Shown: piece after piece, positions 7,031-59,981 of the stretch
Numbering within the stretch: position 1 is the stretch's first letter
Layout: each line of letters starts with the position of its first letter
NCBI GenBank assembly: GCA_044892525.1
Contig: CM097885.1
Span: 23,746,001 to 23,810,000 of the forward strand
Length of the DNA: 64,000 nt
Direction of reading: 5' to 3'
Source of the DNA: Schmidtea polychroa
Taxonomy: Eukaryota
Made by a program: the position numbers and the translations under genes
Notes under the pieces: model-generated
What the model was told of the DNA's origin: nothing
Databases searched by the model: none
The model's input: the letters and a program-made list of their open reading frames with translations, nothing else

Positions 7031-7079
7031 ATATGTACTTTAATGACCCTGGTTTGTTAATTCAGTTTAATTATTCTTA

Positions 7080-38037: not shown

Positions 38038-39276
38038 TATCCCAATTTTTCATTTCATTTAAACCATATTTAAGAATATGATGTAAATCATATCCACGTA
38101 TATTATGAAAAATTACAGGCATGATAAACCTAATTTGTCTTGAAATATTACATTTGGAACAAGAAGCCCCCAAATATTTACCCGTGTAATGATCATGATC
38201 TTTAACTGGGTTTCCTAATAGTTTATTGCACAAGTAACAAATGGTTGAAGAACGAAAGGATTTTTTCTGGTCAGAAGAAAGAAATTCCATTTTCTTTTTG
38301 GAATTATTTAAGAAGTAAGGTAAAACTATTTTTTCACCATTGTCATTTATTTCAGTCAAAAACTGTTCAATACAGTTTAAACCATAAAAACTCTTATATA
38401 TATTTTCGCCAGTAAAATTATTAATTAATAATATTCCGGCTGAAATCGGCAAGTGGAGTTAAAATATTTATCGTCCTTAGGTAAAACAGCCTGAAAATCA
38501 GCATATACAACAAACGGAGGAGTCACAATCTTAGACCAATCTTTAAATATCAAGTTCTTATCGGAAGGAAAACTATACAAAGTTGTACCTAGTTGGTTTT
38601 TCTTACATAATGCCTGATGTTTCTTAAAAGCTTCAGCCATTCGGAATTCATTCAAGCATCGTTCACATCAAATACTCTGAATTCTAACATTTGAAACAGT
38701 ATTACAATTCAAGAGCCTGTCAAGATTAATAACTGCTATGTAATGAAAAGAGTCACTTTCATTCCAACAAAATTAAATTAATGGGAATTCCACCTACAAC
38801 TTTAGACTTATGTATGACATCTACAAAAGGATGTTTCAAAACTTCCTTATCATAACATTTATTAAGTCAAATTCATCATACGAAAGAACATTAATCGCAA
38901 TATCCAGGATTTTAGCCTCAAAATTTGGGATATAACACAATTTCATTGGCAAATCAGAAGAATCAAAGACAAGATCTGATGGATTATAACTAGATGCTAT
39001 ATTTCTATCATGTCTACTAACCTCATCATATTTTATAATAGATAAAATACTATAGATGAAACACATCGTCAGTGTTTTTCACATTAACCGAACGATATTT
39101 TAAAGATAATTTTGGAGAAGTATCAATACCTCCGTGACCACTCAACCTACTTATTTGTGAATATTTTGTCAATTTAAAACTAATTTATTTAATTTTATTA
39201 ATTGACCAGTTGCTACCATTTTCACAGACTTGAGTTATTTTATCATTCAAAAGAGCAATACTGTCATCTAAAAAAG
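38038..39276 (-). pseudogene. polB: Middle fragment of an older Polinton polB
   Basis: CFIYSILSIIKY, PPFVVYADF, CYLCNK..DHDHYTG..CSKCN and FHNIRGYDLHHIL are colinear with the intact PolB. Many stops and frameshifts. Confidence 0.9.
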
Positions 39277-42200
39277 TGTTGGGCTAGAAACCGTGGTAAT
39301 CAAAATTTTTGTAAATTTAAACTTTCTGTAAATTAATTAAAGGAAACCCTGTATTAACTTAAAATGAGGTAATCACCCAAATGTAAGGAAAATAAAGAAT
39401 AAAAGAGAGAAAAAATAATAAAATAAAACAAAAATTAAAACAAAAGTCACTAAAATAAAATAAATGATAAACAAGTTGCAAATAGACAAAAATACACAAC
39501 CATCACCAACAAGCAAAGAGAAAATAATTAGAACGAATAAAAATAAATATCAAAAGAACAAAATATTAATAAGAAAATAAATTATAATCAAGATAAACAA
39601 TAAATAAAAACAAAGAAAGAATAAAACACCAAATTACAAACAAAACTACCATCAGGATCCAACAAAAAAAAGAGGAAAATATGGAAATTAAATTATTTAA
39701 TAAATTATCAAAAGAAAAAGATAAATAACCTAGAAAGAGAAATTTAAAATAACAAAAATATGAAAAAACAATACTTCACACTGATTGAACGAAAATTACT
39801 ATATAAGGAAAACACTTGGTTGATTCCCTCAATTCTAACAAAACTCTATACAGATAAAATTATAAATTTTTTTAATGAATTCTAACAAAACTCTATACAG
39901 GGATCTAGTTCAATATCACTCCAATTAACCCAGTATTCAATTTGTATATCATATTACAACATTTTTCTCAGCATCTTATCATCTCTATCGGAAAGGAAAA
40001 ATGTAAATTTTCATTTATTATTAATTTTTTACAAATATTATGTTAATTTAATTGAATTTAAATATTATAATGATCATAAATTGTTCCTTCTTTTCTCCTC
40101 ACGATATGAGGTTCAACGACGATATTGTTCGGGGATTGTGAATGTGAGAAGCCAAATGATTGAGGAGAAGGAAAGCGTTTAGGCATGAGAGGGAGAGGTG
40201 GAAGGATTTTGAGCCAGGTTTCCTGATATTGAATCACATGACTTGAGTCGAGTAGAAATAGATATTGGCTGAATATTAGGGATCGCAGTATCACCAGCGA
40301 AGAAAATTCTCTACAAATATGATGAGGTAGAAATGAATCGTATGAATTGTGACAACTTAAAAATGGAATTACCCGAGAAAATGGAGAGCGTGAGATATGT
40401 TTTAGGCTGAGTAGTAATGATTGACAAATGAAGAATCGATTGTCATTGATGTAGAAAGGACTAAGAGGTATAATTTCCAATTTACGAAGAGTATGGTCGT
40501 TGAATGTCAAGATTGATTAGATTTTATTTTGATTACTCTTGAATGCTAGAGTGGGTTTGATTTTATTTAAACTTTGCGAATTAATTAGATTTATTATAAT
40601 TATTTATTTACCCGTTTGTGAGGATCGTTTGGGGATTGCTGACACTTGTGTCGGTAGTTACCAGATGATATTCACAGATGGCGAGACAAAGGTTATGACT
40701 TCCGTTTAGGAATGACTAAGTTATATGATAAAAAATTGAATATTCATCGAGTGGCAACTTTCCATGGTAGAAATGAACTCCAATTCGTGGGCTGGAACAA
40801 GAATAAACACTTCTAATTTTCGTCACAGTTACGATGAAAATCCGTTCAGTGCGTGAAATCACGATACTATGATCAATCTTAAAGCTTGTAGTCATCGGCA
40901 GTTACACACCTTAACATTAGCTGAGAGAGCTTCGATAGTTTTATCACGAATTATCATCCTAAAGTGTCCGATTTTCTTTCACTTTGATAGATCAAATTTT
41001 CCACGATAGACGGTTAACATCAACCGATACGAGATTCCCACCGTAATAGGATAGACCTTTGATTCGTCGCCTGTATTAAAACATCCGGTCTCTGAGATAA
41101 GAGGATACACGATATTCCACGACATCCATCTTGAGATATATACAATTACTGCTATTATAAACATCCTCATACAGGATGTCGACGATTTGTCATGATCAAT
41201 CTAATACACATGAACGAACATAGTAAGATTACGATGAAATTGACAAATCAACAGTCGGAATCAAGAACACCACTGAATCGGTCGTTTAGATTATTCTTAA
41301 GTTTTTCATGTTAATCTGTTTACTCGTCGGCGAGATTTCGATGCCACTGTGATGCGTGCCCCATCAATGATATAAACATACAATAGCACTATATCGACAA
41401 ATAATTTGGCCTGATTATTTTAATTAAATTCATGAGAAAAACATTTCTTCACTAAGATAAAATCGAGATGAGAACGAATAATTGTGAAAACTTAATATCA
41501 TAAGGAGACGATGATGCCCTATGTAAGGGAAGATATTGCAAAATTCCTAATCTAAAATAAAAAGTTTTTCTTTTCTTTCTCAGTTTTAATAATTTTTTGG
41601 AGTAATTAAAATATTAATCCATGGGGTGGTTAAGAAAATGATTTTCGTCACGAACAAAATTTGTAATTGAACATGAGAGAGTGAGTTGGAGTGGCTGATA
41701 GAGCTTTAAGTTTCATGGGCTATTTCCTAAGTCATGGTACTTTAAACAAGGGCCACTTATTCCAGCGAATAAATTTGTAATGTTAATAATAATGTAAAAG
41801 TGCTAAGTCAAATCTCACTACTGTTGAAACCAAACGAAATAGTTGAGAACCATTAAAACATATTAAAAAGCGGTCACATTCGACAGGAAAATAAATTTCG
41901 AAAAATTAAATGAGTGTTGAAACAAGGAGGATAATACAATGTTTGAGGTGTGATAGGAGTGTGTCAATCTATTTCGTATAGTTAAGATTTTATTTTTAAC
42001 TCATTTTTCCAGTATGTCGGAACCTAACTTGTCAATACGCGGCTCGAAACCCTGTTTTTCGTGCGCCGACAAGAATGCGGACATGCACAAGCTGAAAGAC
42101 CATATAGGGGCTCTGAAGAAGCGTATTGACACGCTGGAGCATACGTGGTTCTCCCCTCCACAAATGAAAGAGGCTAACATGAAAATCTTACGTCTCGAAC

Positions 42201-42723
42201 ATTGCCGGGATAGCCTATTGGAGGAAAGCAAATGCCAACGGCTCATGATCAAGGCCAAGTCAGAGGCCCTACATCAAATATACTCTGAATCCGAGTTAAA
42301 AAGGCGAGTCAAGGAGTTCCCAATAGCGGATAAGATGAATATTTTCCACATCCACTATCAAACGGATGAAATAACTTCATTAAAACCTTCTGGTTGTCAA
42401 GGCCATGGTCCCGACTTCCCGCCAATCGTCGCTTTTATCTTAGGCGGTGTACCACGTGCCAACGTTCCTCCGGAATCCACTCTTACTGAATCGTCACTCG
42501 TCGTATCTGTAGCACAATCAGATAGTCCAACAAAACTCAATTCCCGAAAAAGAAAACGTCCGACTCGTGCTGAGCGAACTCAACGACACCAAAGCAAAAT
42601 CACTGCACTAGAAGCCACGTTATTTGCGGCTCAGGAGGCTAACACAAAATCATCCAGTAGAAGTCTTATCGCACCACTCGCCACAGCTTCGTATCGAGTA
42701 ATCCCTTCGCAGCATCCGTGCTC

Positions 42724-43438
42724 AGTAGGGTATTGTGTGGACCCGGGAACAAAGACATATGACGTCATCGATGACGTCACAAAGACATATGANNNNNNNN
42801 NNNNNNNNNNNNNNNNNNNNNNNNNNNNNNNNNNNNNNNNNNNNNNNNNNNNNNNNNNNNNNNNNNNNNNNNNNNNNNNNNNNNNNNNNNNNNNNNNNNN
42901 NNNNNNNNNNNNNNNNNNNNNNNNNNNNNNNNNNNNNNNNNNNNNNNNNNNNNNNNNNNNNNNNNNNNNNNNNNNNNNNNNNNNNNNGTTGCGGTATTTT
43001 AAAATTTATATTACGTTGCGGTATTTTAAAATTTATATTACGTTGCGGTATTTTAAAATTTATATTACGTTGCGGTATTTTAAAATTTATATTACGTTGC
43101 GGTATTTTGAAATTTTAATTATTAAATATATTACGTTGCGGTATTTTGAAATTTTAATTATTAAATATATTACGTTGCGGTATTTTAAAAACTTATTTTG
43201 ATGGTTAAATAAAATAAAATTATTACACACAATACTCAGACAAAATATTCTGTTCCCCTATGGTCACACACACACAATGTATAAAAATATTATTTACACA
43301 CACGCAACAAGTTAGTGTTCTCATCGATATATTATTAATCTATATACTCCGAGTTTATCCGACAAAATATTCTGTCCCCCTATGGGTACTGCTAACAAGG
43401 GTACTGGTCGCGCTCAACAACTCGCAAGGGTATTATTA
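42724..43438 (+). repeat. Left terminal inverted repeat (about 700 bp or more, gapped), with a 27-bp tandem array at 42988-43190
   Basis: Reverse complement of 57810-58501 with a few indels. Repeat unit GTTGCGGTATTTTAAAATTTATATTAC. Confidence 0.92.
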
Positions 43439-43870
43439 NNNNNNNNNNNNNNNNNNNNNNNNNNNNNNNNNNNNNNNNNNNNNNNNNNNNNNNNNNNNNN
43501 NNNNNNNNNNNNNNNNNNNNNNNNNNNNNNNNNNNNNNNNNNNNNNNNNNNNNNNNNNNNNNNNNNNNNNNNNNNNNNNNNNNNNNNNNNNNNNNNNNNN
43601 NNNNNNNNNNNNNNNNNNNNNNNNNNNNNNNNNNNNGTAAATGTCACAAAGTTACTGTTAAAAAATATTCAAGACAAAACATTAACAAAGAAATTATACT
43701 TTAAATATACACTAAAATTTATTAACACACTGGGTAAAGGTGATAAAGGTAACTAACAAAACTTTAACATATTATTATTACACACAATGTATAAAAATTG
43801 TTCACAAAGTTACTGTTAAAAAATATTCAAGACAATATGACTAATACATTTATTAAATAATTTAAACACA

Positions 43871-46800
43871 TCATCGAAAATAATCATGTCCAAAATAATT
43901 ATCATCTGCTGGATCATGGAAATCATCTGTATCATCTGCTGAGATAGCTTCCGTTGAATCTATAAATATAACGGTGTCACCGCCCCTATAATGACCATAT
44001 GCCAAACTTTGATTTTTATCCACCCAATTTCGCTTATCATCTCTACATGTCAAGGCTCTTTTATTATTTTTAATACTAAAAAGTTGGTGATTTTTTGACG
44101 TTATTCTAAACTGAGGGACTGTGTATATTTTATCATTTAAATAACAATCTAGATACGACTGATGTGTTAGTCCAGTATCTTTCATACTTATCCCCTTAGC
44201 CTTCATACTTTCCTCATCACCCATCAAACTGTAACATTTAGGTCTCAAGAACACCCAATCTTTATATAATAACCCTTTATTCTCGTCTTTGAATTTACCA
44301 ATGACAGAATCAAGGTTCCTACTATATAAAGGATGATTTGGGTCATAATTCGAAGTATCTAATAATTGATCTCTAATCATCGCAGGTAAAAGAATGTCAA
44401 GACTACAATGTTTAATTTCCAAGAAGAAGGAATCTGTGTCTCCAGCAACGATATTAATTTCGCAGTTGAATTCGTCGCGATATTTTTGCAACTCTTCATA
44501 CTGCAGCTGGTACATCCTGAGTTTGGATAAATCAAGTACGGTTTGACCAATGTAACTAGGTCTATTCAAACATACTATGTCCTTCCTCAATAAAACCGAA
44601 ATCAAGTCATCATCGATTTTCGTGGATTTACGAAAAGTCGGTTTCGAACAGAATGTTAATAATCTCTGTGAAGAATTACACAGACGTAAATTAATACGTT
44701 TTTTAAGATTTTCAACAGTCTTGCCGTAAAGACTGTTGTTTAATAATTTATAAAAATTTTTATCGAGTTTATTTGTCGACGCTGCTCGTAACGCCGTATT
44801 TGTGTTAATATAATTTTTGAAAATTTTATCTTGTTTAAATTTAATTGCTCTATGTGTTTTTGATATTTTAACACCTAATTTAATAAATATTTGTAGAAGC
44901 CTCCAATGAAGAACGTAGTTCCTCTTGGGGCTGTGTGTAAGCAACAGCTTCTCTATTTTCGAACCCAGTACACACATCTTTTCAGCGGCAACGGGAAGAT
45001 CGTCCAGTTTGTCGTGAATTGACGTCGGTATTTCTAAATCCACTTCTATGGTATAACCATAATCAAGCAGATCTAAATCTACCGTTGTGCATTCAACAAT
45101 TATATTATTTAATAAATTATCATCAGTAACCCATTCAAAGTCACTGCAAGGTAATGGTTGACTTAAAGCCCAACCGTATAAATTATTTATATCTATGTAA
45201 AGCAAAGCGGTATCCGGGTCTGTTTTTACATAATGTTTATTTACAAAAGTTAGTCCGCCACGGATACCGCCCTCGAAAAAGTTATACATCTCCATATCGG
45301 TGAGGAGCTCAATTGGAGAGTTTAAAGTTAATAAGGCTGAATTCCAAGACATACCTGGAATCCCTAAGAAATTTAATGGCTCTAGTCGGTTATGAGCAAT
45401 GGACTTAGCTCTAAATTGCTGGAAAAAATCGGCTAAAAGGAAAACATCAAGTTTTAAATAAACCATCATGTAATCGAAAAGTGAAGTACATGAAGTTTCA
45501 ACCCAAATTCGCTGAGCTGTCTCATATTCAGCGGGAGTCACATCTTTCCAAATAGGAGGTAACTGATGAGTGTTATGCAAAACCTCTAATGAAGTTGCGG
45601 CATCATAAGGAAAAATTCCCTTTGCAGTTATTATTGTACCCTGAAATTCTGATTCGGTCAAGGGTAAAGATGATAAAGTTTTGACAGCATTATTTAAAGA
45701 CTCGCTGACAAATTGATAAGAGTCTATAAATTTAACAGTTAATGAGTCAATCCTAGCAAAAAGACTAAGGAATTTCTCGCTGGTTAAAGAAATACAACTA
45801 ATATTCCATGAATGATATTTTGAAAGGCCAAATTTCAAGATATGATGCAGATCATAACCCTTTAAATTATGAAATACTACAGGAAGGGTATGTCTAATTT
45901 GCCTCGACAGATTACAAGTTGTACAAGCGGCACCAAGATATAGACCGGTAAAATGATCATGGTCCCTAACTGGACTAACTAAAGGCTTATTGCACAAATA
46001 ACATGATGTGCTGTTTTCAAACATTAATTGTTGCTCATCTGTAATTATCATTTTCTTTTGATAATTTTTATAATAATAAGGAGTTACAATATATTTCCCT
46101 ATCATTTCAATTTCAGTAAGAAATTGATCGACACAATCTAAACCGGTGAACGACTTATAAATTTTTACGCCCGTGAAATTATTAATAAAAAGCATACCGG
46201 CAGAAATAGGCAGATGACGTTGAAAGTAGCGAGTGTCTTTAGGTAAGATAGCCTCAAAGTCAGCGTAAATAACAAAGGGAGGAGTAACTGTTTTACTCCA
46301 ATCAGTAAATTCTAAATATTTATTTTTAGGCAATGTGTACAAGGTAGTACCAAGCTGATTTTTATCGCAAAGACCCTTATGTCTATTAAAAGCGTCATCA
46401 TTCCTAAAACCGTTTAAACATCTAGGGCACCACTGACTACAAATCCTAACAGGAGTGATTGAACTATTCCTACAATTAAGAAATCTATTTAGGTCTGTGA
46501 TTCCAAGATAATGATAATTATCATTCTTTTCAATTAATAATAAATTGATAGGTATGGCTCCTACTATCTTACTCCTATATATTATATCAATAAAGGGATG
46601 TTTCATAACTGCATCTTCATCGGAAATGTCAATCAAAGCCCTTTCGTTATAAGTAAGAACATTAATACTATAACCCGGATTTTGTTGTTCAAATTTACTT
46701 ATATTTGATAGTTTCATCGGCATATCATTAGGATCAAATTTAATTTCAGAAAGATTGTAGGAATTAGGGCGATTTCTATATTGCCTATTTATACTATCAT

Positions 46801-47718
46801 ATTTAATAATTGACAAGAAACTATACAAAAAGCAGAAGTGGTCATTATTAACTACATTAACGAGACAGCTTAAGTTTCTTAAAGATTTTGGGGTTTCAAT
46901 AAAACTTCTACCACTTAACCGACTTATTTCAGCAAATTTAGTCAGAACAAAGCTTATGTATTCTATTTTATTGATAGTCCAATTACTACCTTTCTCATTA
47001 ATTTTAATTATTTTTTCATTTAAACGAGCAATACCTTCGTCAATGAATGTATCGCTCCAAACTCGGGCGGAATTCGAGATTACAAAAGATTGTAACTCAT
47101 CATCTTTTATAAATTCCACCTTTAGACAAAATTGAATTTTACATGATTTTAATTTATTTACATATAAATTTAATTTATTTATTAAAATGTCTGGTACAGA
47201 GACCGTTTTTAAATCTAAAGACGAAACGTCCATTTTTAATATAATATGATTATTATTTAAATCACTGGTGACATCTACGACACCATAACCTATTTGATTA
47301 TTATTATTATTATTACCATTATTATAATAAATATTACTACTACTATTATTATTATCAATTTCATCATCACTTATGTTGATTATTTCATCATCATCACTTA
47401 TGTTGATTATTTCAATAACTTTAGATTTTTTACTTGGTATTGAATTGATTTTTTCATTATTTTTTCTTTTATTCATATTAATTAGAATATTTATTTGATC
47501 ATTTAATTTATTTACTTGATCTTTTAGTTTAGTTATTTCGTTTATATCATTATTATTGGTGTTGTTAGTATTGTTGTTGGTGATATTATTATCATTATTG
47601 TTGATATTATTATTATTGTTGATATTATTATTGTTGTTGATATTATTAGTGTTGATATTATTATTAGTGTTGTTGATATTATTATTAGTGTTGTTGATAT
47701 TATTATTATTGTTGTTGA

Positions 47719-47749
<31 letters not shown>

Positions 47750-48425
47750 AAACGATTCATATAAGCTATAGAAAAGAGACTTCTTAGAAGGTTTAAATTG
47801 TTGGAGATGGAGTCTATGCTTATTATAAAATTCCTTATACGTTATAACTTCAATAACCTCACATTTAGGGCATAGGATGTAGGTGACACCGTTATATTTG
47901 TGACTATAATATCTTTCCATTATATCATCGCAGTCATTATGATATTGACTATTACAAAAGTTTTGGTATTTCAAACCTATGAAAATATTTTTATCATAAA
48001 ATGTTTAAAAAATAATAAGATAATAATCATTTTTAAAGTTTAAGATATTTTTCGTAAGATATTATTCAAAATTGACTTTTAAATAGTATCTTATAAGAAA
48101 TTATATATAATTTAATTCATTTTCATAAATAAATAATTCATTTTCTAAAATAGATTTTCATAAATAATATATAAAAGTTATTAATTATAATGTTCAAAAT
48201 CATCATCATATTTCATAAATCTTCTTTATAAAATCATCATAAATAAATAAATCTTCTTTTCATGAATAAATCTTTTCATAAATCTTCCTTTCAAAATTAT
48301 CATAAATCTTCTTTTCATGAATAAATCTTCTTTTCATAAATCTTCCTTTCAAAATAAGTAAATCTTCTTTTCATGAATAAATCTTCTTTTCATAAGTTTC
48401 TTCTTTTAATTATTATTATTATTAA

Positions 48426-48456
<31 letters not shown>

Positions 48457-48802
48457 ATTGTTTAAAAAAAAAAAAAAAAAAAAAACTTAAAAACTTATTA
48501 CAATAAATAAATACTTACATTTTCGTCCTTTCGAAAGAAATTTTCCAGCATCGGCACCATCAGAAGTATTTATTACATTTCCATCTAAAAGCATAATAAA
48601 AATAATAATGATAATAAGAGTAAACTATTACCATTTATTCTATTCATGTCTACATCTTGTCCGTCGATATTCATTTTAATTTGTTGATTAGTACCTAATA
48701 ATCATATTAAAAATAATAAAATAATAAAATAATAAATTTACCATTAATTCCTCCTACGATCTTTCCGTCAACTCTTTGAATATTGTTGTTGTTGTTGTTC
48801 AT
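43871..48802 (-). CDS. polB: Protein-primed family B DNA polymerase; predicted join(48742-48802, 48632-48694, 48519-48584, 43871-47976), 1431 aa
   Basis: Exo motifs YADFE, FHNLKGYD and YLKLDV. Pol motifs DINNLYG, KLLNNSLYGK and GDTDS. EndoVII-like Zn insert. The main exon is certain; the three upstream exons are predicted from phase-compatible GT-AG sites. Confidence 0.93.
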
Positions 48803-49232
48803 GTTGTTAAATATTGGTAATAGATTTTTAAAAGTGATGAAAAAATGAAAGTGTAGACTATATAAGAGAGATATTACAGGTTTTATTAACCGACCAATGA
48901 AAATAGAGATAGGATAGGAAAAGACACTACATGTTTGTTTATACAAACCATGATGAAATAATGACCTTTACATGTCTTTATTACTCAGTGCTTTGTTACT
49001 TTGCACTGTGCATGCACTGAACATGTAATAGTATTACATAATATTTTTAAACATAAAATTTAACAAATAATATATTAAACATAAAATAATAATATATTAA
49101 ACATAAAATAATAATATTTAACAAATAATAATAATATTTAACAAATAATAATAATAATATTTAACAAATAATAATAATATTTAACAAATAATTAAAATAG
49201 TCAACAAATAAAAATCATACAGTATACATTTA

Positions 49233-49644
49233 TTAACCATCAAATTTTTTATACAACAACCATGCCAAACAGTGTTGACCACATGTTTGAGTCAATGGAT
49301 TTTGAAACATAGTTTTATTATATACAATAGGTTTCCCAATTGTTTGAAGTTTTGATATCAACAAAGCAGGATAATAGAAACCCATAGGATCGAATACGAA
49401 TATATTACTAGGTTTCACATATATAGCTATCCAATGTTCTCCACCAAGATGAGACGAATGAGTATTGACGATTATGGCTTGATTATTGCTCAAATAAGGA
49501 ATTTTATCGAGAGGGAAAACACCTACAAATTCATTTCCTAATATTTGTTTTCCAATTCGATTAACCTGAACAGAACTACTTTAATAAAATTAAACAGTAT
49601 CAAAAAACTTACTCCATGACAACTTTTTGTGTTTCTGTATACAT
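49233..49644 (-). CDS. Adenain-like cysteine maturation protease, join(49613-49644, 49233-49575), 124 aa
   Basis: GVFPLD..VNT..GEHW..FD..Q..CG (His/Asp/Cys triad). A 37-nt GTAAGT..AG intron restores MYTETQKVVMDSVQVNRIG.., and its ATG directly follows the capsid stop (TAAATG). Confidence 0.9.
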
Positions 49645-50868
49645 TTATACTAGCACGGTTCTATTTGCAGTAATTTGAACTTCATTTTCAAATACTCCAT
49701 ATATTATAACATGTACCGGTTCAGTGATAGCTTTTGCAAACTTAATATCCAGTCGTAAATTCCCGTTTTGTGGTAGTTGACTCTGATTTAAATCAAAATC
49801 AGGGGCTAAAACAAATGTGAAAAATGGATATTTGCTTTTAAATTCTTCTAGAGTAATTCCACAATTCAAGTTTTTATCTAAGTAACCCAGATTTCTAACA
49901 ATACTCTGCATATATGTCGCACAGTAATTATCGCTTTCGAAATCTTGAGTATATGTTTCTCTATAATCAGTATTTTTCGACAAAGTCAATGAAGTAACAC
50001 CAAAATTTTTGAAAATTGAGCTGGAAGCAGTATAAGATCCATTATATTGCGTTTCACTTTGAAATGTTACCAGAATAAAATTAGGCATTCTTCTGTCACC
50101 AAATATTTGTTCTTTATAGAATGATGAAGCACCTTTAGCAATAGCAAATTGTACAATTTCCTTTGTTTTTAATGGATAAATTGCATGTTTTGAATTAAGA
50201 CCCAATTGATGACCAGCTAATACTGACGGGTCTACTCGAACTCTTCTCACCAATAATTTTGCATCAACTAATTGACATATTGGTGCACCAGTTGCACTAG
50301 TAAGAGTTAGTGCAGAATCGGACCTTTTCAATCTAATGTGTACATTAACTCCTGGTAGCAAATATTTCGGTTGATCCATAAAATCGAGTTGTAATGATGA
50401 GCACATAGTGAATGATTTTGAGCCTTTAACCCACTTTTTTCTTTCATCATCTGTTGCAGCATAACCCATAGGTGTAAGACAGGTATTTTTAGTATCAGAA
50501 TTGTAATTTAAAATAGTTTCTATCAAAGCCTTGTGAATGAATGTATTATTTCCGCCCTCAATCTTGATATTATTAAATCCCAACACTGCATCTTTAAATA
50601 GAGTATGAAACAGGAAATTGTTCGGTATTACATCTGCATTGGCATCCAAAACTTTTCTATCTTTATCTACAACCTTGATCTGGACAGTCAATAAAGTATC
50701 GTTCAAATCTAAATATTCAGTTTGCGAACCATTAATATAAAACTCGATATCATTTCTACTATCAGTAATTGAATTCATAGGAAAAACTTCCTCAAATGCC
50801 CCAAATTCTATTACAGCCTGGGGCGACGGTCTATCAAATATACATAATTCAGATTTACCACAAATCAT
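49645..50868 (-). CDS. Major capsid protein (double jelly-roll, hexon-like), 407 aa
   Basis: SELCIFD..IEFYING..YLDLNDTLL..NNFLFHTLF, typical of Maverick MCPs, in the expected position. ATGA overlap with the upstream gene. Confidence 0.9.
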   Translation of the reverse strand: MICGKSELCIFDRPSPQAVIEFGAFEEVFPMNSITDSRNDIEFYINGSQTEYLDLNDTLLTVQIKVVDKDRKVLDANADVIPNNFLFHTLFKDAVLGFNNIKIEGGNNTFIHKALIETILNYNSDTKNTCLTPMGYAATDDERKKWVKGSKSFTMCSSLQLDFMDQPKYLLPGVNVHIRLKRSDSALTLTSATGAPICQLVDAKLLVRRVRVDPSVLAGHQLGLNSKHAIYPLKTKEIVQFAIAKGASSFYKEQIFGDRRMPNFILVTFQSETQYNGSYTASSSIFKNFGVTSLTLSKNTDYRETYTQDFESDNYCATYMQSIVRNLGYLDKNLNCGITLEEFKSKYPFFTFVLAPDFDLNQSQLPQNGNLRLDIKFAKAITEPVHVIIYGVFENEVQITANRTVLV

Positions 50869-51227
50869 TTTGCAAATATAGTTCCATGTCCTTTCATTCG
50901 TTTGTTTATACGTGATATTCCATGTCTTTTACGTTTTGGAGCTGGGGCTGGAGGCGTATCTTTTTGAAACATACCTGCAACCCCTGGTAAAACTTTCCCT
51001 AATTCAGCTAAAGCATTTGTTTTTAGGGATGGTAATATTTTCTGTTCATTCATAATAACGTCTTTTGCAGTTTTCATACCAAAACTACCAATACGTTTAA
51101 GAATAGGCAATGCAAATCTACCAATTGTTCTCAACCATCCCGATCCGTACTGTTTACCAATAAAATATGGTAATTCGCCACCAGATTGGCTATCACTATA
51201 CATACTAATAATATCAGAATTTGCCAT
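50865..51227 (-). CDS. Small basic core-like virion protein, 120 aa
   Basis: Q-x-G-x-G motif (QYGSGW) followed by the amphipathic LRTIGRFALPILKRIG and a basic tail. Lies between the penton and hexon genes. Confidence 0.7.
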   Translation of the reverse strand: MANSDIISMYSDSQSGGELPYFIGKQYGSGWLRTIGRFALPILKRIGSFGMKTAKDVIMNEQKILPSLKTNALAELGKVLPGVAGMFQKDTPPAPAPKRKRHGISRINKRMKGHGTIFAK

Positions 51228-52287
51228 CTACTTTACGAAAATGTAGTGTCAAATGAGTTTTTGAGTCTTTTGGAAAGTTTATAAGTTTTCCACTATCGTC
51301 ACAAATATTTATTTCTATATTGTTTATACATGAGCTTGAAATTGGTAAATACATGGGATTATCTATATTTATATTGACAACTTCATCATGTTCATATTTT
51401 CCAATCCATACCGATTTCAAAAGAGGAACACTGGAATCACCAACAATTATGGGTTCGATAATGTTAGTATATATGAACATTTGTTGATGATGTTCTAGTA
51501 TTCTTGGTTTGCGTATACCAGTCGATTTTTCTCGATATTTTTGCCTATCTAATCCAAGTGAATTTGCCAAATTTTTATCAAATGTAACTTCGCAAATGTC
51601 ATCATTCAAACTGAAGGTAAACATCAAATCTTTCACAATTTCCAAATTTTTAAATATGTGTGAACAATTGAACTTTAAATATTTAAGTAAATCATCAAGT
51701 TTATCAAAATATAATTCATCAGCAAAGGTAAATGATTCTTCAACTTCATCATTATACGACACAGATATTTTGATTTCTTCTTTCATTACACTGTTTGCTT
51801 CAAATAGATTAAAACGTAATAAATACTCGGTCTCCGTAACAATATATTTCAACTTATTGCAACCCATTCGTTTGGCATCTTCAATAGTTTCGAATGTTAT
51901 TGTAAACGGTTTAAAATCACAACTGATATTTAATCCATCCTTGTAAAACATATAGCAATGCGAATCTAATATTTGATTCGGAATATGATATGTTTTATCA
52001 TAATTACTAATAACAAAGATACCGCTACATGTTTTCACAATATTCCTTCTGAAATCAATCTTACAATGACTATAAAATGGGAATGTGTTGTACACAAATG
52101 TAAAATCTTGCAGTGCAACTTCCCAGTCCCCATTTAAAGAAATCGGATTCTGGAGATTGACCATAGATTTACTGGCTTGATTGTCTGGATGAATTAATGG
52201 GCAACTATTGCTTGGTAAAATAGTATAAAAATTCACTTTACTAGATCCTTTTCTGATATCCATGATGGGTTTTGATAACCATGCCAT
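51214..52287 (-). CDS. Minor capsid protein (penton-like), up to 357 aa
   Basis: FYTILPSNS..N..S..V.LQNPI.L.GDWEVAL and MFIYTNII..VGDS.VPLL..YLPI..IEINI.D. Confidence 0.87.
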   Translation of the reverse strand: MAWLSKPIMDIRKGSSKVNFYTILPSNSCPLIHPDNQASKSMVNLQNPISLNGDWEVALQDFTFVYNTFPFYSHCKIDFRRNIVKTCSGIFVISNYDKTYHIPNQILDSHCYMFYKDGLNISCDFKPFTITFETIEDAKRMGCNKLKYIVTETEYLLRFNLFEANSVMKEEIKISVSYNDEVEESFTFADELYFDKLDDLLKYLKFNCSHIFKNLEIVKDLMFTFSLNDDICEVTFDKNLANSLGLDRQKYREKSTGIRKPRILEHHQQMFIYTNIIEPIIVGDSSVPLLKSVWIGKYEHDEVVNINIDNPMYLPISSSCINNIEINICDDSGKLINFPKDSKTHLTLHFRKVDGKF

Positions 52288-53352
52288 TTGACATAGTATT
52301 GTTTATCCTTGCCGACCTTTTTAGTTTTCAATATCTTTTGAATTCTAAATACTTTTGGAGGAGGAATAACTTGTAATTCTTGCTCATAAAATTTTCCTTG
52401 TACAATATTGTTATCATAATCACTGATGACATACATTACAGGATTCTGACTAGTATTTATTTTTGAAATTACAAAGACTTCATCACTCCAATTTGTATCG
52501 AAATTTTTAATAAATGGTGATGCACTAATTTTACTAATTCTAACATGGTCACCGACTTTATATTTAGGTTTTGCAATTTTTACAGATTTCTTAGAAGTCA
52601 ATGTTTTTGATGTAATATCAACCGGTCTTAATCCATTAAGTCCTCGATGTGATGAATGATTATAACTTGTTATTATTTTCGGTAAAGCATTTACCCATTT
52701 TTTATTACCTTGATGCACGAATAATTTCTTTAATCTATCTCTCAATGTTCTGTTAAATCTTTCAACATGAGCAGCTTTGTATTGAGAATGTACCGAGTAA
52801 TGGTTTATTTTCAATTTATTGAGGATTTGCTTGACTTTACTNNNNNNNNNNNNNNNNNNNNNNNNNNNNNNNNNNNNNNNNNNNNNNNNNNNNNNNNNNN
52901 NNNNNNNNNNNNNNNNNNNNNNNNNNNNNNNNNNNNNNNNNNNNNNNNNNNNNNNNNNNNNNNNNNNNNNNNNNNNNNNNNNTATTAGGATGTCCATCTT
53001 TAAATAAAATATTAATTGCCTTGGACATTTCATCTGAAGATTTTGCCTTGACGGGTATTGCTCGGGCAAACCGACTGAATACATCAATACATGTTAAAAT
53101 ATATTTATTCCCATTGTTAATTTTCGAATAAGGTATCATCTCCATCAAATCCATTTGCCATAAATCATTTATTCCATATGTTTTATATACTCTTGTTGGG
53201 AATCGTTTCTGCATTGGTTTGTTCAAACTGTACGCAAGCTGGTCTGATAACCACTTCTGGGTTTCCTTTTTCGAATTCGGAACTCTTTTGTTTAATTTTG
53301 CCACTCCACCGAAACCGGCTTCGTCTTCGGGGTTCGTCCAAATCTTCTCCAT
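52233..53352 (-). CDS. int: Retroviral-like DDE integrase with C-terminal chromodomain (spans the N-gap 52842-52982)
   Basis: WQMDL..YILTCIDVFSR..HVERFNRTLR..YNHS.H and YYVKWHGY..SWI. The frame change across the gap is a gap-size artefact. Confidence 0.92.
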
Positions 53353-53413
53353 TACAACAAGAAGATTTAATATTAAATTTAATGTCTGGTAATGAAGGAT
53401 TAGCACCCATTGT

Positions 53414-53908
53414 TTATGATCGACTTCCTATTATTCCACCTAATAATGATATTGCTAAAGGTATCAATGCACCGATAAATCCCCCTTGTTGTTTATATAT
53501 AATTTTTCTCATTTGTTGACGATTTTTATTATTTACTAATGATAGCAAAGGTTTCCTATGTTTACTCAATAATTGCTTTTTAGATTTACTGATTTTAATC
53601 TTGCCTTTGACTACTTTAAGTATAATATCGAGTAAATCATCGACAACATAATTTGGAAAAGATTGTAAAATACTGTTTCTTTTCATACTGGGTGCTTTTA
53701 ACAATGTATTGAAAAACGGGAAACTCCGATGATTTTTAACAACTTTTACTTTCTTAGTGGTTTTACTTTTAGGTTTAGGTTTAGGATTTTTCGAAATAAG
53801 ATTCATTGCAGGAAAATTTTCTGTAATAAGTTCTTTAGATGGAGTATAACTAGTTGTTGGTGGAACTTTTGGTTGTTTTTTACTCGATATCCTTGTTTTT
53901 GAAAACAT
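53414..53908 (-). CDS. Lys-rich protein with adenovirus pX-like C-terminus, 164 aa
   Basis: Ends KQQGGFIGALIPLAISLLGGII, resembling pX (RGGILPLLIPLIAAAIG) with an xGG cleavage-type site. Confidence 0.7.
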   Translation of the reverse strand: MFSKTRISSKKQPKVPPTTSYTPSKELITENFPAMNLISKNPKPKPKSKTTKKVKVVKNHRSFPFFNTLLKAPSMKRNSILQSFPNYVVDDLLDIILKVVKGKIKISKSKKQLLSKHRKPLLSLVNNKNRQQMRKIIYKQQGGFIGALIPLAISLLGGIIGSRS

Positions 53909-53921
53909 GATTTATATGTTT

Positions 53922-54560
53922 TCAATTTTGTTTTGAACTTTGTTTATAAACCATGGCACCTTTTGGGTTGAAAATATCTGTTTTTACCCGTATATCATCA
54001 GGACATTGTTGTGTGAAATCGAGAAATATATACCCATGAGGTATTTTCGTAGCATCTTGAAATGCATTGATAAGAAAATTACGGTTATTAGGGTATGCTT
54101 GTCGTCCAAGAAAATCAATGACAGTTGCATCTCTAGGATTCTTGAAAATAACTAGATATTGTACATTTAAATTACGTGTTCGATGTGCCCCACCTTGATG
54201 AAATAAATTTTGTGTTATGAAAATAACTGTTACACCAACATGTCTGCTGATTTTTGTGAATAAATTATTAAAATCCTTTTCTTTATTGGCTTCTTGATAC
54301 AAATCATCGATAATGATTACATCATCTTTCTTCAAACGACTTGACCAGTTTTTATCAAAACCCTTTACTATTTTCATGTTTTTCAATTGACAGAAACTTG
54401 ATTGTGTCAATCCATGTTCTTCATCGGCGCCCCTATGCCAATAAATATTGTTGAATTTTGTTTTGAACAAATTTGATTTTAGTAATTTACAAACAAATAA
54501 TGTTTTTCCGCTACCACTTGGACCAACGATTTGGTATACTGCATCATTTCGTAATTCCAT
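53922..54560 (-). CDS. A32/FtsK-like genome-packaging ATPase, 212 aa
   Basis: Walker A GPSGSGKT, Walker B IIIDD, SRH arginine finger and ITQNLF. Confidence 0.93.
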   Translation of the reverse strand: MELRNDAVYQIVGPSGSGKTLFVCKLLKSNLFKTKFNNIYWHRGADEEHGLTQSSFCQLKNMKIVKGFDKNWSSRLKKDDVIIIDDLYQEANKEKDFNNLFTKISRHVGVTVIFITQNLFHQGGAHRTRNLNVQYLVIFKNPRDATVIDFLGRQAYPNNRNFLINAFQDATKIPHGYIFLDFTQQCPDDIRVKTDIFNPKGAMVYKQSSKQN

Positions 54561-54572
54561 TTTTTAAATTTA

Positions 54573-54639
54573 AACTATATATAATTATTGTTTATATTGA
54601 TAATTTAAATGAACTCCTTTTTAAAATAACTATATATAA
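54573..54639. promoter_or_regulatory. Divergent promoter with two AACTATATATAA boxes
   Basis: Identical 12-mers at 54573-54584 and 54628-54639 in the 107-bp gap between the head-to-head ATPase and TBP-like genes. Confidence 0.55.
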
Positions 54640-54667
54640 CAGAGTTTTTTATAATTATTTCATTAAA

Positions 54668-55132
54668 ATGCTTTCAAATATAAATTACAGGGCAAAAGCT
54701 GATGTATCAAAAATGGTATTTCCAATGGGGAAACCACAACAACTCATCAATAGAAGTAAAAAATATCCAATAATATATTTCAAAACTGGTAAATGTAGAA
54801 TTATGGGGTGTAAGGAAATAATCAAAGCTAGTGAATATAATGTTTATGATTTAGAAATACAATCGATAACCATAACTTCCGATATAGGTTTTTCTTGTAA
54901 TTTAAATAAATTGGCTAAATTAATACCATGCTTTTACGAACCAGAATTATTTCCAGCTTTGAGATATATAAAATATAACCCTATGTGTGTAAATATATTC
55001 GCTAGCGGTAAGATAGTAATTCTTGGAATAAAAAATATTGATTACAAATGTATAGTTGATAATATCATATCTGAAATTAAATCAATAATTGAAGGAAATG
55101 AATTTTTAGATTTTTTATTATCACTTAATTAA
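54668..55132 (+). CDS. Divergent TATA-binding protein (TBP) homologue, 154 aa
   Basis: Repeat 2 FYEPELFPALRY..NPMCVNIFASGKIVILGIK resembles canonical SYEPELFPGLIY..KPKIVLLIFVSGKIVLTGAK. Repeat 1 IYFKTGKCRIMGCK resembles LIFASGKMVVTGAK. Confidence 0.85.
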   Translation: MLSNINYRAKADVSKMVFPMGKPQQLINRSKKYPIIYFKTGKCRIMGCKEIIKASEYNVYDLEIQSITITSDIGFSCNLNKLAKLIPCFYEPELFPALRYIKYNPMCVNIFASGKIVILGIKNIDYKCIVDNIISEIKSIIEGNEFLDFLLSLN

Positions 55133-55253
55133 TTATTTATCATTACAAATTCAATGCAATTGAAATGCATGATTCTGATTGGTCGAAATCTAATTGGCTG
55201 ATGATTATTTATAACAAAATGTTTTCGGTTTAGTTGTCATTTATTCAACAAAA

Positions 55254-55661
55254 ATGTACAACATACAAAGTTCCGCAATCACCTCAATGAAAGAGCATGC
55301 AAATTATGGTAATTTCAAATTTTTATTATTACATTAATATATATATTTTACAGATGAATATCAATCAATTATCCTGCAAAGATTATGCTTCTATTATCCA
55401 GAATTAAATGAAATTCTACAAGATAGAGATAAAGCTATCATTCCGGATTTGGTATACAACCAAACACGAATCTGGATATTTGATATAATAAACACCTTTC
55501 TATGGGATATCAAGATAGGAAGGGGGATGAAAGAAATGAAACCAGAGGCTCCTTGCATTTTCGGATGTAGCTGTTGCAATTTCCGTTATCAACAATATGT
55601 TGAATGGTGTTTGGTGAAGACTCTGAGAAATCACCACTCGAGTCAGATTGTATCAAAATAA
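55254..55661 (+). CDS. Unknown Cys-rich protein, join(55254-55308, 55354-55661), 120 aa
   Basis: A 45-nt GT..TTTTACAG intron contains an in-frame stop. Spliced product MYNIQ..ANYDEYQS..PCIFGCSCCNF. Confidence 0.75.
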
Positions 55662-55793
55662 ATTTTTATGTTGAATTGTTTTGTTTTTGTAAATCGAAAT
55701 AATAGAAATAATAATAATAATAGTAATAGAAATAGTAATAATAATATAAGTAATAATAGTAATAAAAAACAATATTTATAATAAAAACATTAA

Positions 55794-56411
55794 TGCAACA
55801 TTAATGCAAATGACATGCAATTTAAACAAAGACATACAGCAATCTGATTGGTTGATAAACAATAGTCATAGGTATAAAAACCCTGTACCATTTCATTTTA
55901 ATCATAATTCACGATGACAAAGAAAATTTCAAGCACTGAAAAGCCAAAAGTTGTTCCAGAACTTGTAAAACCTGTTCAAATGTTCCACAACTATAAAATG
56001 TATTTTTTAAAAGAAGAAATCAATATGAAATTGGCGTCGCCGATCAAGCTAATTCCAACTAAATTTCAATTCTTATCCGGCACGCTTTCAATGATAGATA
56101 TTAAATCTATTGATGAGGTTTTCAAACGGTTGAATACGAATCTATCTTGTAATCAACATGCCTGGTTCAACAACAGATATGCAAGATTTTATGATTCCTT
56201 TGATGAAATCGGTTTCAAAGAAAACGAAAATTGGTATATAACAATTGCAATCCAAGGATATAAAGTAGATAATAATGATGTGTATTCTCCAATTTGGAAA
56301 ATTATGTCTGCTAGACTTTCACAACTATTTTAATGTTATATTTAATAAATGTATTAGTCATATTTGTTTTTTCTCTTTATTAATTGCAACATTAATGCAA
56401 ATGACATGCAA
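55794..56411 (+). promoter_or_regulatory. Duplicated 27-bp promoter module containing the octamer ATGCAAAT
   Basis: TGCAACATTAATGCAAATGACATGCAA is identical at 55794-55820 and 56385-56411, each upstream of a gene. Confidence 0.7.
55914..56333 (+). CDS. Unknown 139-aa protein (possible OB-fold ssDNA-binding protein)
   Basis: Clean ATG ORF with its own GATTGG+TATAAA promoter and AATAAA. The fold guess is weak. Confidence 0.65.
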   Translation: MTKKISSTEKPKVVPELVKPVQMFHNYKMYFLKEEINMKLASPIKLIPTKFQFLSGTLSMIDIKSIDEVFKRLNTNLSCNQHAWFNNRYARFYDSFDEIGFKENENWYITIAIQGYKVDNNDVYSPIWKIMSARLSQLF

Positions 56412-56460
56412 ATTTAACAAAGAAAATCTATAAACAAACTTATAATATAGTTTTAAAGTG

Positions 56461-56786
56461 ATGAAAATGACTGCAGAAAAAGGTTAACATGATTAATTAA
56501 ATACTGAATTATTTATTATTTAGAATTATTAATCAACTTTTTGTTGGAAAAATTAGCAGAAATATCTGGTGTAAAAATTGAGGATATATTATCTGTTACA
56601 AATGCATTAAATATCGGCTGGGTAGTTGAGAGTCAAGATTCAAGATTTGAAGAAACCGATACTCAAGAAATTGATGACGAAATCTATGAACCTAAAGATA
56701 ATATTACGAATGATTGTATTGATCATGTCGTTGAAAATATAATGAAATGTGGAGATGACGATTGCGAATGTGTTAATAAATTTTAA
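56461..56786 (+). CDS. Unknown acidic protein, join(56461-56482, 56524-56786), 94 aa
   Basis: A 41-nt GT..TTATTTAG intron supplies an ATG in frame: MKMTAEKELLINF..EETDTQEIDDE..KCGDDDCEC. Confidence 0.7.
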
Positions 56787-56830
56787 AATTGAATTATTTT
56801 CATTTAAATATACTATTAAAAACAATAACA

Positions 56831-57359
56831 TTAATTTTTATTCATATATCTACAGAAAATATACATTATAACAACTCCAGTTGTAAGTTTTATAAAGTTT
56901 TTCATTTTTCTTTTGATTTCATCAGTTTCTTTAAAATTGCAGGCCAGTTTATTTAATACACCCCATCCGCCATTGGCTTCTATCCATGGGGTAAACTTGG
57001 ACTTGATTATCTAGAAATGAATATTATTAAAATATAGATTATAAAAGAAATCTTACTTCTAAAGACCACTGATAATAATGTTCTGAGTCATGTTGACCTT
57101 TTGCAATGATTATCTTCATGTAGGTGAATCCTACAATTATCCTTGTCCATTTCATGTCTTCATCGAAAAGACACTGAAATATTCTATTGAAGTAATACTT
57201 CTTGGTTTCCAGGGATTCCATCTCCATCATCTGCTGATAATCGATATGTTCACCTTCAATGATTTGTTCGGTTCGATTGATCAGGAAATTGAGGCTGTCG
57301 ACTATATTCGCGGTGACAATTCCGTTTAGAACATTTTCCATAAAATTTGGTTGCGACAT
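56831..57359 (-). CDS. Bcl-2-family protein, join(57057-57359, 56831-57010), 160 aa
   Basis: BH1-like LFDEDMKWTRIIVGF. A 46-nt GTAAGA..TTCTAG intron brings in BH2 WIEANGGW and the hydrophobic tail LTTGVVIMYIFC followed by RYMNKN. Confidence 0.85.
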
Positions 57360-57809
57360 TTCTAAATTAATTTAAAATATAATGTTTTATTTATACTAAT
57401 ACCATATGATTTTGATTGGTTGATAGACTATAAATGTAAAAGAAAGGTTTTGATTTGATACACCATAAAAACTGTATTGCTAATTATTATTATAACGAGT
57501 GTGTGCTAACACAATACTATAAATTTTATAATATTCGACTATGTTTTTTGTTAACTNNNNNNNNNNNNNNNNNNNNNNNNNNNNNNNNNNNNNNNNNNNN
57601 NNNNNNNNNNNNNNNNNNNNNNNNNNNNNNNNNNNNNNNNNNNNNNNNNNNNNNNNNNNNNNNNNNNNNNNNNNNNNNNNNNNNNNNNNNNNNNNNNNNN
57701 NNNNNNNNNNNNNNNNNNNNNNNNNNNNNNNNNNNNNNNNNNNNNNNNNNNNNNNNNNNNNNNNNNNNNNNNNNNNNNNNNNNNNNNNNNNNNNNNNNNN
57801 NNNNNNNNN

Positions 57810-58501
57810 TAATAATACCCTTGCGAGTTGTTGAGCGCGACCAGTACCCTTGTTAGCAGTATCCCATAGGGGGGACAAAATATTTTGTCGGATAAACTCG
57901 GAGTATATAGATTAATAATATATCGATGAGAACACTAACTTGTTGCGTGTGTGGACATTAATAATATTTTTATACATTGTGTGTGTGACCATAGGGGAAC
58001 AGAATATTTTGTCTGAGTATTGTGTGTAATAATTTTATTTTATTTAACCATCAAAATAAGTTTTTAAAATACCGCAACGTAATATATTTAATAATTAAAA
58101 TTTCAAAATACCGCAACGTAATATATTTTTAAAATACCGCAACGTAATATAAATTTTAAAATACCGCAACGTAATATAAATTTTAAAATACCGCAACGTA
58201 ATATAAATTTTAAAATACCGCAACGTAATATAAATTTTAAAATACCGCAACGTAATATAAATTTTAAAATACCGCAACNNNNNNNNNNNNNNNNNNNNNN
58301 NNNNNNNNNNNNNNNNNNNNNNNNNNNNNNNNNNNNNNNNNNNNNNNNNNNNNNNNNNNNNNNNNNNNNNNNNNNNNNNNNNNNNNNNNNNNNNNNNNNN
58401 NNNNNNNNNNCCGGGGGGTGGGGGGTATGACGTCATATGTCTTTGTGACGTCATCGATGACGTCATATGTCTTTGTTCCCGGGTCCACACAATACCCTAC
58501 T
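57810..58501 (-). repeat. Right terminal inverted repeat (gapped)
   Basis: Mirrors the left TIR, with a 27-bp array at ~58069-58278, a G-tract at 58411-58425 and TGACGTCA sites. Confidence 0.92.
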
Positions 58502-59078
58502 GTGCTCCAATATGATCCGCATCTATAGACAGATATTGATGCGATGATAAAAGAAGGAGAGTTGATGTGAAAAGATCCGATTCCGTACCTCGAGAGATGA
58601 ACTATCGTTCCAGCCAAAACGTATCGGTCATTGTTTAGTATAGACACTGTACAAGACTTTATATGATCTATCGGTGTTAATTCTTGTCGTATGCAATAGA
58701 ATTCGTTGAAAAGGGCCTCGTGTTCTCACATTTTCATACGAAATTATGTAGAAAGGTGTTATTTTCTAAATCCGTCATTATGTCGAAAAACCAAGAATTC
58801 TGAAGTCGTCTCACTGAACCAGAGACAGACCGTGGTTAGAAAGACGAGTAGCGTAGATGTAAGTCCTTCTATCGATATTCAGGAACCCGTACAGCAAATA
58901 TTGTGAATAGTAGTCATAATGCAGGGGCTAACCTGTTCGGAAGTTCCAACCCGAGTGTGCAGCACCAACATGACATATCATCATGGGCACACATGAGGGA
59001 GATCATTGTCAAGTCATGACGGACATTTACTGAATTCGACAGTGAATAAATAACATTCCCCTAAGTCACCAGCAAAAG

Positions 59079-59610
59079 TATCTATCACTCATGGGTTTCG
59101 CCGAATTAGATATTATAAAAGACTGAAATTGTCCATCTTTTCAAATTCTACATCTATGCAGAATTGAATTTTAACATATCCCATTTCGGATATAACAGAA
59201 TTTAATTTAGTTATAAATGGTGCAGGGATAATTAATTTTTTTAAATTTAAAGAAACTATTTCAACAATTATAACCACCATATTGAACAATATTTTCGTCA
59301 TTTGATGAATAAACATCTTCATCATCGGAAATTACGAATAGTTTCGATGGTTGTGGACAAACAGTAACCATTCGTCTTTTATTTAGACTAATAAATGCAA
59401 AAAGATTCTTCTTTGTACAAGAAAATTGATTTAAATGTGCACAGTGTTGACTATAAAAGTCAGAAAAAGTTATATTTTGGAAGCTCTTACAAATGGGACA
59501 TATAAAGAAGGTGACTCGTTTATTCACATGTCGATAGTATTTTTTCATTATTTTATGGCAATTGCGGTCATCATGGACTTTACATTGACAATAATTCGGG
59601 TAAAGATTAC
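59079..59610 (-). pseudogene. polB: N-terminal fragment of the older Polinton polB
   Basis: YPNYC..HDD..C..IMKKYY..CPIC..H..HL.QF and KIQFC..EF..QSFIISNSA align to the intact PolB N-terminus. Confidence 0.8.
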
Positions 59611-59981
59611 CTTAATTATAAAATACCATTAAAATTATTCAAAGGTTTTTTAAATATCATAAAATAAAAGAAATTCGATATATAATTGTAATTATACACA
59701 AAATATTATTATTATTACTAAATAATATTAAAGAAATCTGATTAAATTAATGTTTACACAAAACTTTGCCAATTATTATTATTTATTAGAAGAAATATTT
59801 ACAAAATTTATTACTAAAAATATTTACTAAATTAAAAATTATATTAAATTTCCTTTAAATCATAAAAAGTAATCAATACTTACATTGTAAATTTTCATTT
59901 CGATTTATTGACATATAGACATAATTTTTCTCTTTATTCGTATTACCTAAATTACTAATTATATCCTGCAACAAAGACGAC

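Follow-up and report, generated by a model that had tools for sequence, protein, structure and literature searches.

Whether the Polintons (Mavericks) of animals form virions is a long-standing open question. Their gene set has been argued to make them viruses (PMC4028283), and particles have been reported for the Polinton-like viruses of algae. In vertebrates, Barreat and Katzourakis (2021, PMC8097293) describe 134 intact Mavericks in 17 species, with core genes that are intronless and under purifying selection and with particles as yet unobserved; in planarians, Polintons are described as piRNA targets that are partly de-silenced during differentiation (PMC8532177). Here we analyse a window of 64,000 nucleotides (nt) from Schmidtea polychroa (assembly GCA_044892525.1, contig CM097885.1, positions 23,746,001 to 23,810,000 of the forward strand), in which an element of 15,778 bp occupies positions 42724-58501. 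An earlier note, made from the letters of the DNA, had read this element as an apparently intact, potentially virion-competent endogenous virus of comparatively recent insertion. We conclude that it is likely to be a recent, full-length insertion from a high-copy Polinton/Maverick family of the adintovirus type, whose virion module has been under selection and several of whose genes are spliced by the host, while this particular copy is beginning to drift. An abundant young family of this kind could answer the question of virion formation from existing sequencing data.

The element resembles the intact vertebrate Mavericks of PMC8097293 in its 6-bp target-site duplication, its terminal inverted repeats (TIRs), its size (within their range of 12.7-24.6 kb), its complement of polymerase, integrase, ATPase, protease and both capsid genes, and the purifying selection on its morphogenesis genes. 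It differs from them, as they are described there, in that its core genes all lie on one strand, that its end motif AGTAGG matches (AGT)2 at five of six letters, and that it carries introns in the protease, the polymerase and probably the integrase and belongs to a very abundant family, whereas those elements are defined as intronless and occur in 1-38 copies. With the adintoviruses (Starrett et al. 2021, PMC8502044) it shares a PolB of the PF03175 type (that of their Alpha class), an rve integrase, an FtsK-type ATPase, adenain, hexon and a putative penton; the accessory genes reported for that group include Bcl2 homologues and a TBP-like one. Adintovirus annotation uses open frames longer than 100 amino acids, and in the main text of that paper the string 'splic' is absent and 'intron' occurs once, in another context; its supplements may show spliced genes.

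The Mavericks of nematodes (Widen et al., 10.1101/2022.07.12.499685; Jeong et al., 10.1101/2023.08.22.554363) have the same core set, and their virions, too, are inferred and not seen. Unlike here, however, their introns are described as confined to cargo genes near one end, the core genes being intronless. The dinoflagellate maverick-polinton-like proviruses (PMC11957031) are full-length, possess capsid genes and carry spliceosomal introns, as does the present element, but their introns are reported to be recent insertions of transposon-derived introners, whereas the protease intron described below appears old and conserved in position. The new aspect of an otherwise known class is the introns in core genes: we found no title or abstract opening on conserved introns in animal Polinton core genes, in a search that left subscription journals and Repbase outside. 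A rule that admits only intronless elements would score an intron-bearing clade as decayed and, because intact elements have been defined in this way, active lineages may be undercounted.

The element starts with AGTAG and finishes with CTACT, its ends being of the AG/AGT type found on Polinton TIRs, and it is flanked by a target-site duplication of 6 bp that is perfect, as the earlier note had stated (42718-42723 and 58502-58507). The left TIR (42724-43636, plus strand) is visible to 43438 and the right TIR (57557-58501, minus strand) from 57810. The inner borders fall within N gaps (43439-43636 and 57557-57809), so that TIR length is bounded at 715-913 nt. The tips of the arms show no difference in their outermost 69 nt. 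The TIRs had been said to differ by a few indels; this is correct as far as it goes, there being four indel events across 43124-43438, but the same interval also holds two substitutions, and the arms differ further in a tandem array of 27-nt units (42988-43190 in the left TIR), of which four perfect units are present on the left and five on the right, with gaps interrupting both. Excluding the array, substitutions between the visible arms amount to about 0.5%. We discarded an age estimate from this divergence, for want of a known rate and because a gap edge is less than 70 nt away from two of the differences. The perfect duplication, the low rate of TIR substitution, the visible catalytic motifs and the thousands of contigs at least 99% identical to the element (see below) all support a full-length and fairly young insertion, in agreement with the earlier note. 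Five gaps, totalling 919 nt (5.8%), interrupt the element, four in the TIRs and one in the integrase.

The minus strand carries the genes for the ATPase, a protein of 164 amino acids (aa), a 75-aa frame, the integrase, a putative minor capsid protein, a 120-aa protein, the major capsid protein (MCP), the protease and the polymerase. The plus strand carries a short TBP homologue and three small genes, and a Bcl-2-like gene, on the minus strand, adjoins the right TIR. Long open frames are present for the protein-primed family B polymerase (pPolB; 1349 aa from the first ATG), the MCP (407 aa), the minor capsid protein (357 aa) and the ATPase (212 aa), together with two small core-type genes. The main exon of pPolB (43871-47976) matches Pfam DNA_pol_B_2 (PF03175) above its cut-off (E=5e-29), with nearest homologues 62% identical; it comprises an Asn-rich linker, an endonuclease-VII-like insert, and exonuclease and polymerase motifs that could be located. 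Cys and His motifs at its N-terminus are, we presume, OTU-like. The MCP (49645-50868; 177 homologues) is predicted to be a double jelly-roll: its AlphaFold2 model (predicted local distance difference test, pLDDT, 91.2) is matched by Foldseek to the capsids of iridovirus, PBCV-1, mavirus and Sputnik (best E=2.4e-17), and also to adomavirus and virophage models. Both the adenovirus-type maturation protease (49233-49617; Peptidase_C5, E=1.6e-6) and the A32-type packaging ATPase (53922-54560; Pox_A32, E=2e-7) exceed their Pfam cut-offs; the ATPase shows Walker A and B motifs and is 55-75% identical in relatives. The integrase (52233-53352), of retroviral type with a C-terminal chromodomain, gives matches to rve (E=6e-7), rve_3 and Chromo on two pieces, each below the Pfam cut-off, and these pieces are 42-68% identical to continuous homologues. 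By the definition tested, the element is a Polinton/Maverick.

The remaining genes of the morphogenesis region are conserved as well. The 357-aa gene (51214-52287) has no family match in profile searches; it is conserved at the expected place, with syntenic homologues 27-35% identical over most of its length, and by position and size it is a putative penton. In three relatives (L025, L026 and L027) two minor-capsid-like genes stand in tandem. A conserved, basic, core-type protein of 120 aa (50865-51227), without a Pfam match, is syntenic in related loci, its position suggesting its role. The 164-aa protein (53414-53908) is likewise conserved, basic and syntenic, and has a hydrophobic C-terminal helix; in the Atlas it falls nearest to unnamed clusters (0.92-0.93), and the match to Adeno_PX, at only 0.78, is a weak lead. 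The 75-aa gene (53183-53410), which starts Met-Gly, is overprinted on the 5' end of the integrase in another frame, and an equivalent overlapping Met-Gly frame of at least 40 codons is present in 8 of 12 relatives. Metagenomic relatives whose capsids are 40-60% identical retain the gene order from the ATPase to the protease, and in IMG/VR none of 39 pattern matches encodes an MCP relative.

All core open reading frames (ORFs) had been reported to be open outside the gaps. It is true that no stop or frameshift interrupts the core exons, but the protease lacks an ATG and the integrase pieces lie in different frames, so that splicing is needed. The protease frame (49580-49233) contains no ATG ahead of its conserved body and, for this reason, can be read only if spliced. 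We predict a first exon of 5 nt (49617-49613), a phase-2 intron of 37 nt with GT..AG ends (49612-49576), and a second exon that extends to 49233. Upstream DNA was sufficient in 30 related loci. Of these, 15 share the 5-nt exon and have an intron of 37-47 nt that differs in sequence, and the remaining 15 have an in-frame Met at the intron's place. Such a pattern arises by chance in 81 of 200,000 shuffles. In an MCP tree of 29 rows, from which L047 and L051 were omitted for their short capsid cover, all 16 intron bearers fall in a single clade with 100/100 support; several rows are near-copies, which leaves about 12 independent intron-bearing lineages. On this tree the intron needs two changes, one gain and one loss. 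A protease intron that is old, conserved in position and divergent in sequence across the clade is a well supported prediction. One locus, L008, is without the intron yet nested in the intron-bearing clade, an apparent precise loss; L051, outside the tree, is likewise without it.

Further introns are predicted elsewhere in the element. A spliced leader of the polymerase gene (47977-48802, minus strand) would consist of exons at 48802-48742, 48694-48632 and 48584-48519, with introns of 47, 47 and 542 nt, all of them GT..AG, in phase 1 and compatible in phase. Homology between the polymerase and a relic at 59611 (42% identical in its first domain) begins at the same splice acceptor, upstream of the first ATG, and this relic (59078-59960) has a phase-1 intron position identical to that of the third polymerase intron, with a GTAAGT donor at 59883, 273 nt upstream. 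One contig of run X9 begins right at the first predicted donor (48741) and has 85 letters left unmatched, which is no more than a hint; X9 and X14 are contig sets whose origin from RNA is a guess.

In the integrase, the two pieces lie in different frames across a gap of 141 N (52842-52982) that hides the middle catalytic motif. Their spacing is 145 nt, 106 nt more than the 39 nt measured in 11 of 12 relatives; the other relative has 45 nt. Three X14 contigs enter the gap, two from 52841 and one from 52983. Read by eye, they extend the coding sequence by 35 letters in total, which is the exact shortfall and includes the middle acidic motif, and beyond those letters they run into ATT-rich sequence that has GT at one end and AG at the other. 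An intron of about 106 nt, missing from the relatives, is thus the most likely content of the gap; it is seen in sister copies and inferred here.

The Bcl-2-like gene (56831-57359, minus strand; exons 57359-57057 and 57010-56831) is interrupted by a stop unless spliced, and its halves are in phase across a candidate GT..AG, phase-0 intron of 46 nt. A sister protein, P0241, matches the product up to the predicted donor and diverges after it. The product matches Pfam Bcl-2 below the cut-off (E=8e-4), and all five of its matches in the PDB at E<=1 are Bcl-2-family proteins, each of them weak. For exon 1, no longer homologue was found among 40 candidates, and there was one match among 1.84 billion representatives.

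Altogether we predict up to eight introns. The protease intron is well supported; the third polymerase intron and those of the integrase and the Bcl-2-like gene are moderately supported; and four are proposed from splice signals and phase alone. Three or four core genes would depend on introns that the earlier note overlooked. The intact Mavericks of PMC8097293 have all core ORFs complete and intronless, and the present element falls outside that description, since its protease needs an intron and its integrase gap probably holds one.

The family to which the element belongs is large, still homogeneous and present in very many copies. This stretch of DNA is represented in 20 of 24 listed sequencing runs, from 7 studies, and 7 runs share half its words or more. 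On the internal 13.9 kb of the element, run X3 yields 15,613 contigs (4,971 at >=99% identity, 5,216 at 95-99% and 5,426 at 90-95%) and run X1 yields 92,632; these contig counts, like summed contig depth, are not copy numbers. The idea that this element is the only capsid-bearing survivor is rejected, at the level of the family, by thousands of sister contigs.

Variation within the family bears the mark of selection. At family-variable coding sites, taken from the 40 best-supported of 596 variant rows, 20 of 28 changes are synonymous, compared with 25.5% expected (P=5e-7); the share is 11 of 16 in the MCP and 5 of 5 in the protease. This signal of purifying selection belongs to the family and not to the single copy, and such mostly synonymous variation is as expected if the family's capsid module worked recently. 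That the family recently used particles seems to us somewhat probable. Summed contig depth is several-fold lower over 43640-49200, on the polymerase side, than over 49200-54800, from capsid to integrase, in all four runs; this hints, weakly, that copies differing in their polymerases have the capsid module in common.

Knowledge of the class suggests how such an element would work. Its integrase would have inserted a linear genome, leaving the 6-bp duplication; an excised copy would be replicated by the protein-primed polymerase from its inverted ends; and the ATPase, the two capsid proteins and the protease would package and mature the genome. To judge from the sequence, host RNA polymerase II would transcribe the genes, and the host, an AT-rich animal with short introns, would splice the protease, the polymerase, the integrase and the Bcl-2-like gene, these introns making the element dependent on the host spliceosome. 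TATAAA occurs 32-56 nt before 7 of 11 gene starts, compared with 25 of 390 control windows, and is absent at that distance before the TBP homologue, the polymerase, the integrase and the minor capsid gene. The TBP homologue may act at these boxes, which precede most structural genes, and the Bcl-2-like protein may delay cell death. Some family members probably made particles, the virion module having been under purifying selection during the recent spread, whereas this copy appears to be starting to drift and is likelier to be a passenger, open to complementation in trans, than a provirus sufficient to itself. A broader possibility, which we put forward tentatively and consider rather doubtful as a whole, is a clade of animal polintoviruses with a host-spliced polymerase and protease (and, in this family, integrase), in which old, conserved introns exist beside a continuing gain and loss of introns, spread is still by particles at very high copy number, and the element's own TBP homologue drives its structural genes. 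If this were true, production of the maturation protease would hinge on splicing a first exon of 5 nt, and surveys based on ORFs would score such elements as broken.

This copy might itself be a fully functional provirus that excises, replicates and makes infectious particles unaided. Its core exons, free of stops and frameshifts outside the gaps, would allow this; the catalytic motifs of the polymerase, protease and ATPase are visible, as are the first and last acidic residues of the integrase, and the capsid model is confident. The MCP departs from its homologues at 5 of 108 conserved columns, and since all five unusual residues are shared with the 99%-identical protein P0001, they are family traits. 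In the polymerase, where 274 columns are conserved in >=85% of 69 sequences, the copy departs at 6 of them. However, there are 11 near-private sites, 5 of them missense, where at least 89% of the depth in X1, and likewise in X3, disagrees with this copy, and as 40 of the 596 variant rows were seen, more missense changes may exist. One of the five, at 44967, alters a polymerase column that is 94% conserved, where 1 of 69 homologues shares the copy's residue; another, at 52166, alters a minor-capsid column that is 75% conserved, where 0 of 16 homologues share it. The integrase core and parts of both TIRs lie in N gaps, and PMC8097293 (2021) and 10.1101/2023.08.22.554363 both report that virions had yet to be observed for the Polintons of animals. 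With the integrase core unreadable, missense changes of its own, a selection signal at the level of the family, and no transcript, splice junction or particle observed, the potential virion competence that the earlier note ascribed to this copy is not borne out. We consider it unlikely that this copy is, by itself, a virion-competent provirus. The family looks recently functional and this copy nearly, though not provably, so; within its class a young copy that looks intact is nothing unusual, and this one is not uniquely intact.

Alternatively, the family may spread only within cells, as a transposon, its capsid module serving intracellular packaging or being a recent leftover. The very high copy number fits a transposon better than it fits the intact elements of vertebrates, which are few (1 to 38 per genome in PMC8097293), and the introns would bind expression to the host nucleus. 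Yet family variants in the MCP and protease are mostly synonymous, gene order holds throughout the module in relatives at 40-60% identity, and the conserved Met-Gly overprinted protein and the hydrophobic-tailed core protein are plausible entry factors; we regard spread by transposition only as distinctly improbable. Far less probable still is an element already dead, with lesions where the protease lacks a start, the integrase changes frame and the Bcl-2-like gene meets a stop. Each of these three sites does look broken if left unspliced, and the 15 joints listed, out of 365, all come from X1 and X3 and include no spliced junction. But 15 relatives, of one clade, have the same protease arrangement, again with canonical splice ends, sister contigs supply exactly the 35 missing integrase letters with GT and AG ends between, and the two parts of the Bcl-2-like gene stay in phase when joined over the GT..AG stretch between them. 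We favour a young member of a recently functional, host-spliced family that has itself begun to drift. The lack of a spliced junction weighs against this interpretation too, as do several other observations. The X9 and X14 contigs include unspliced intron sequence, and 3 of the 15 intron-bearing protease loci also have an in-frame ATG upstream of the intron or inside it. The sizes of N gaps in the assembly are estimates. The variant rows used in the selection test favour old, frequent variants, and purifying selection on capsid genes indicates function, not necessarily infectious particles. Finally, the near-private sites are themselves enriched for synonymous changes (6 of 11, P=0.04), so that a part of them may reflect a subfamily instead of decay since the insertion.

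The accessory genes lie between the ATPase and the right TIR. The short TBP homologue (54668-55132, plus strand), found also in related loci, matches Pfam TBP (E=1.3e-14) and NCBIfam TBP models with E down to 4e-14, below the cut-offs of the latter. It is followed on the same strand by a gene at 55254-55661, which has no homologue in related loci and holds a candidate 45-nt phase-1 intron (55309-55353) proposed from splice signals and phase; by a 139-aa gene at 55914-56333, which has homologues in L002 and L027 but no family in Pfam or NCBIfam and no usable match in the Atlas; and by an acidic gene at 56461-56786, where signals and phase suggest a 41-nt phase-1 intron (56483-56523) with a weak donor. 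Rfam gave no match at E<=0.1 over 42000-59500, and ARAGORN no tRNA in the whole window.

Neighbouring Polinton relics are indeed heavily decayed, as had been noted: four other polB fragments (about 7043-7495, 37907-39280, 59072-59611 and 63476-63999) all contain stops or frame changes, and a search with 120 MCP homologues as queries revealed no capsid-gene relic in the window outside the element. The Polinton interrupts an open frame of 236 codons (42014-42723), which would continue for some 12 codons past the right duplication (58508-58546); the frame has no Pfam or NCBIfam match and belongs to a repeat family, with pieces about 70% identical at 5412-5601 and 28716-28959. An uninterrupted frame of 752 aa (14410-16668), also without a match in Pfam or NCBIfam, lies within 14124-16980 between inverted repeats of about 130 nt (69% identity), and is probably a cut-and-paste transposase of a family outside those databases. 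A Tc1/mariner-like element (11977-13439) has inverted repeats of 84 nt (98%) and HTH and DDE_3 domains in two frames. The window also holds a decayed MPN/JAB-domain fragment (1685-1970; Pfam E=6e-4), possibly a host pseudogene, a tandem duplication of 490 nt at 8565-9525 (99%), and a dispersed repeat of 348 nt at 26357-26700 and 34572-34912 (90%).

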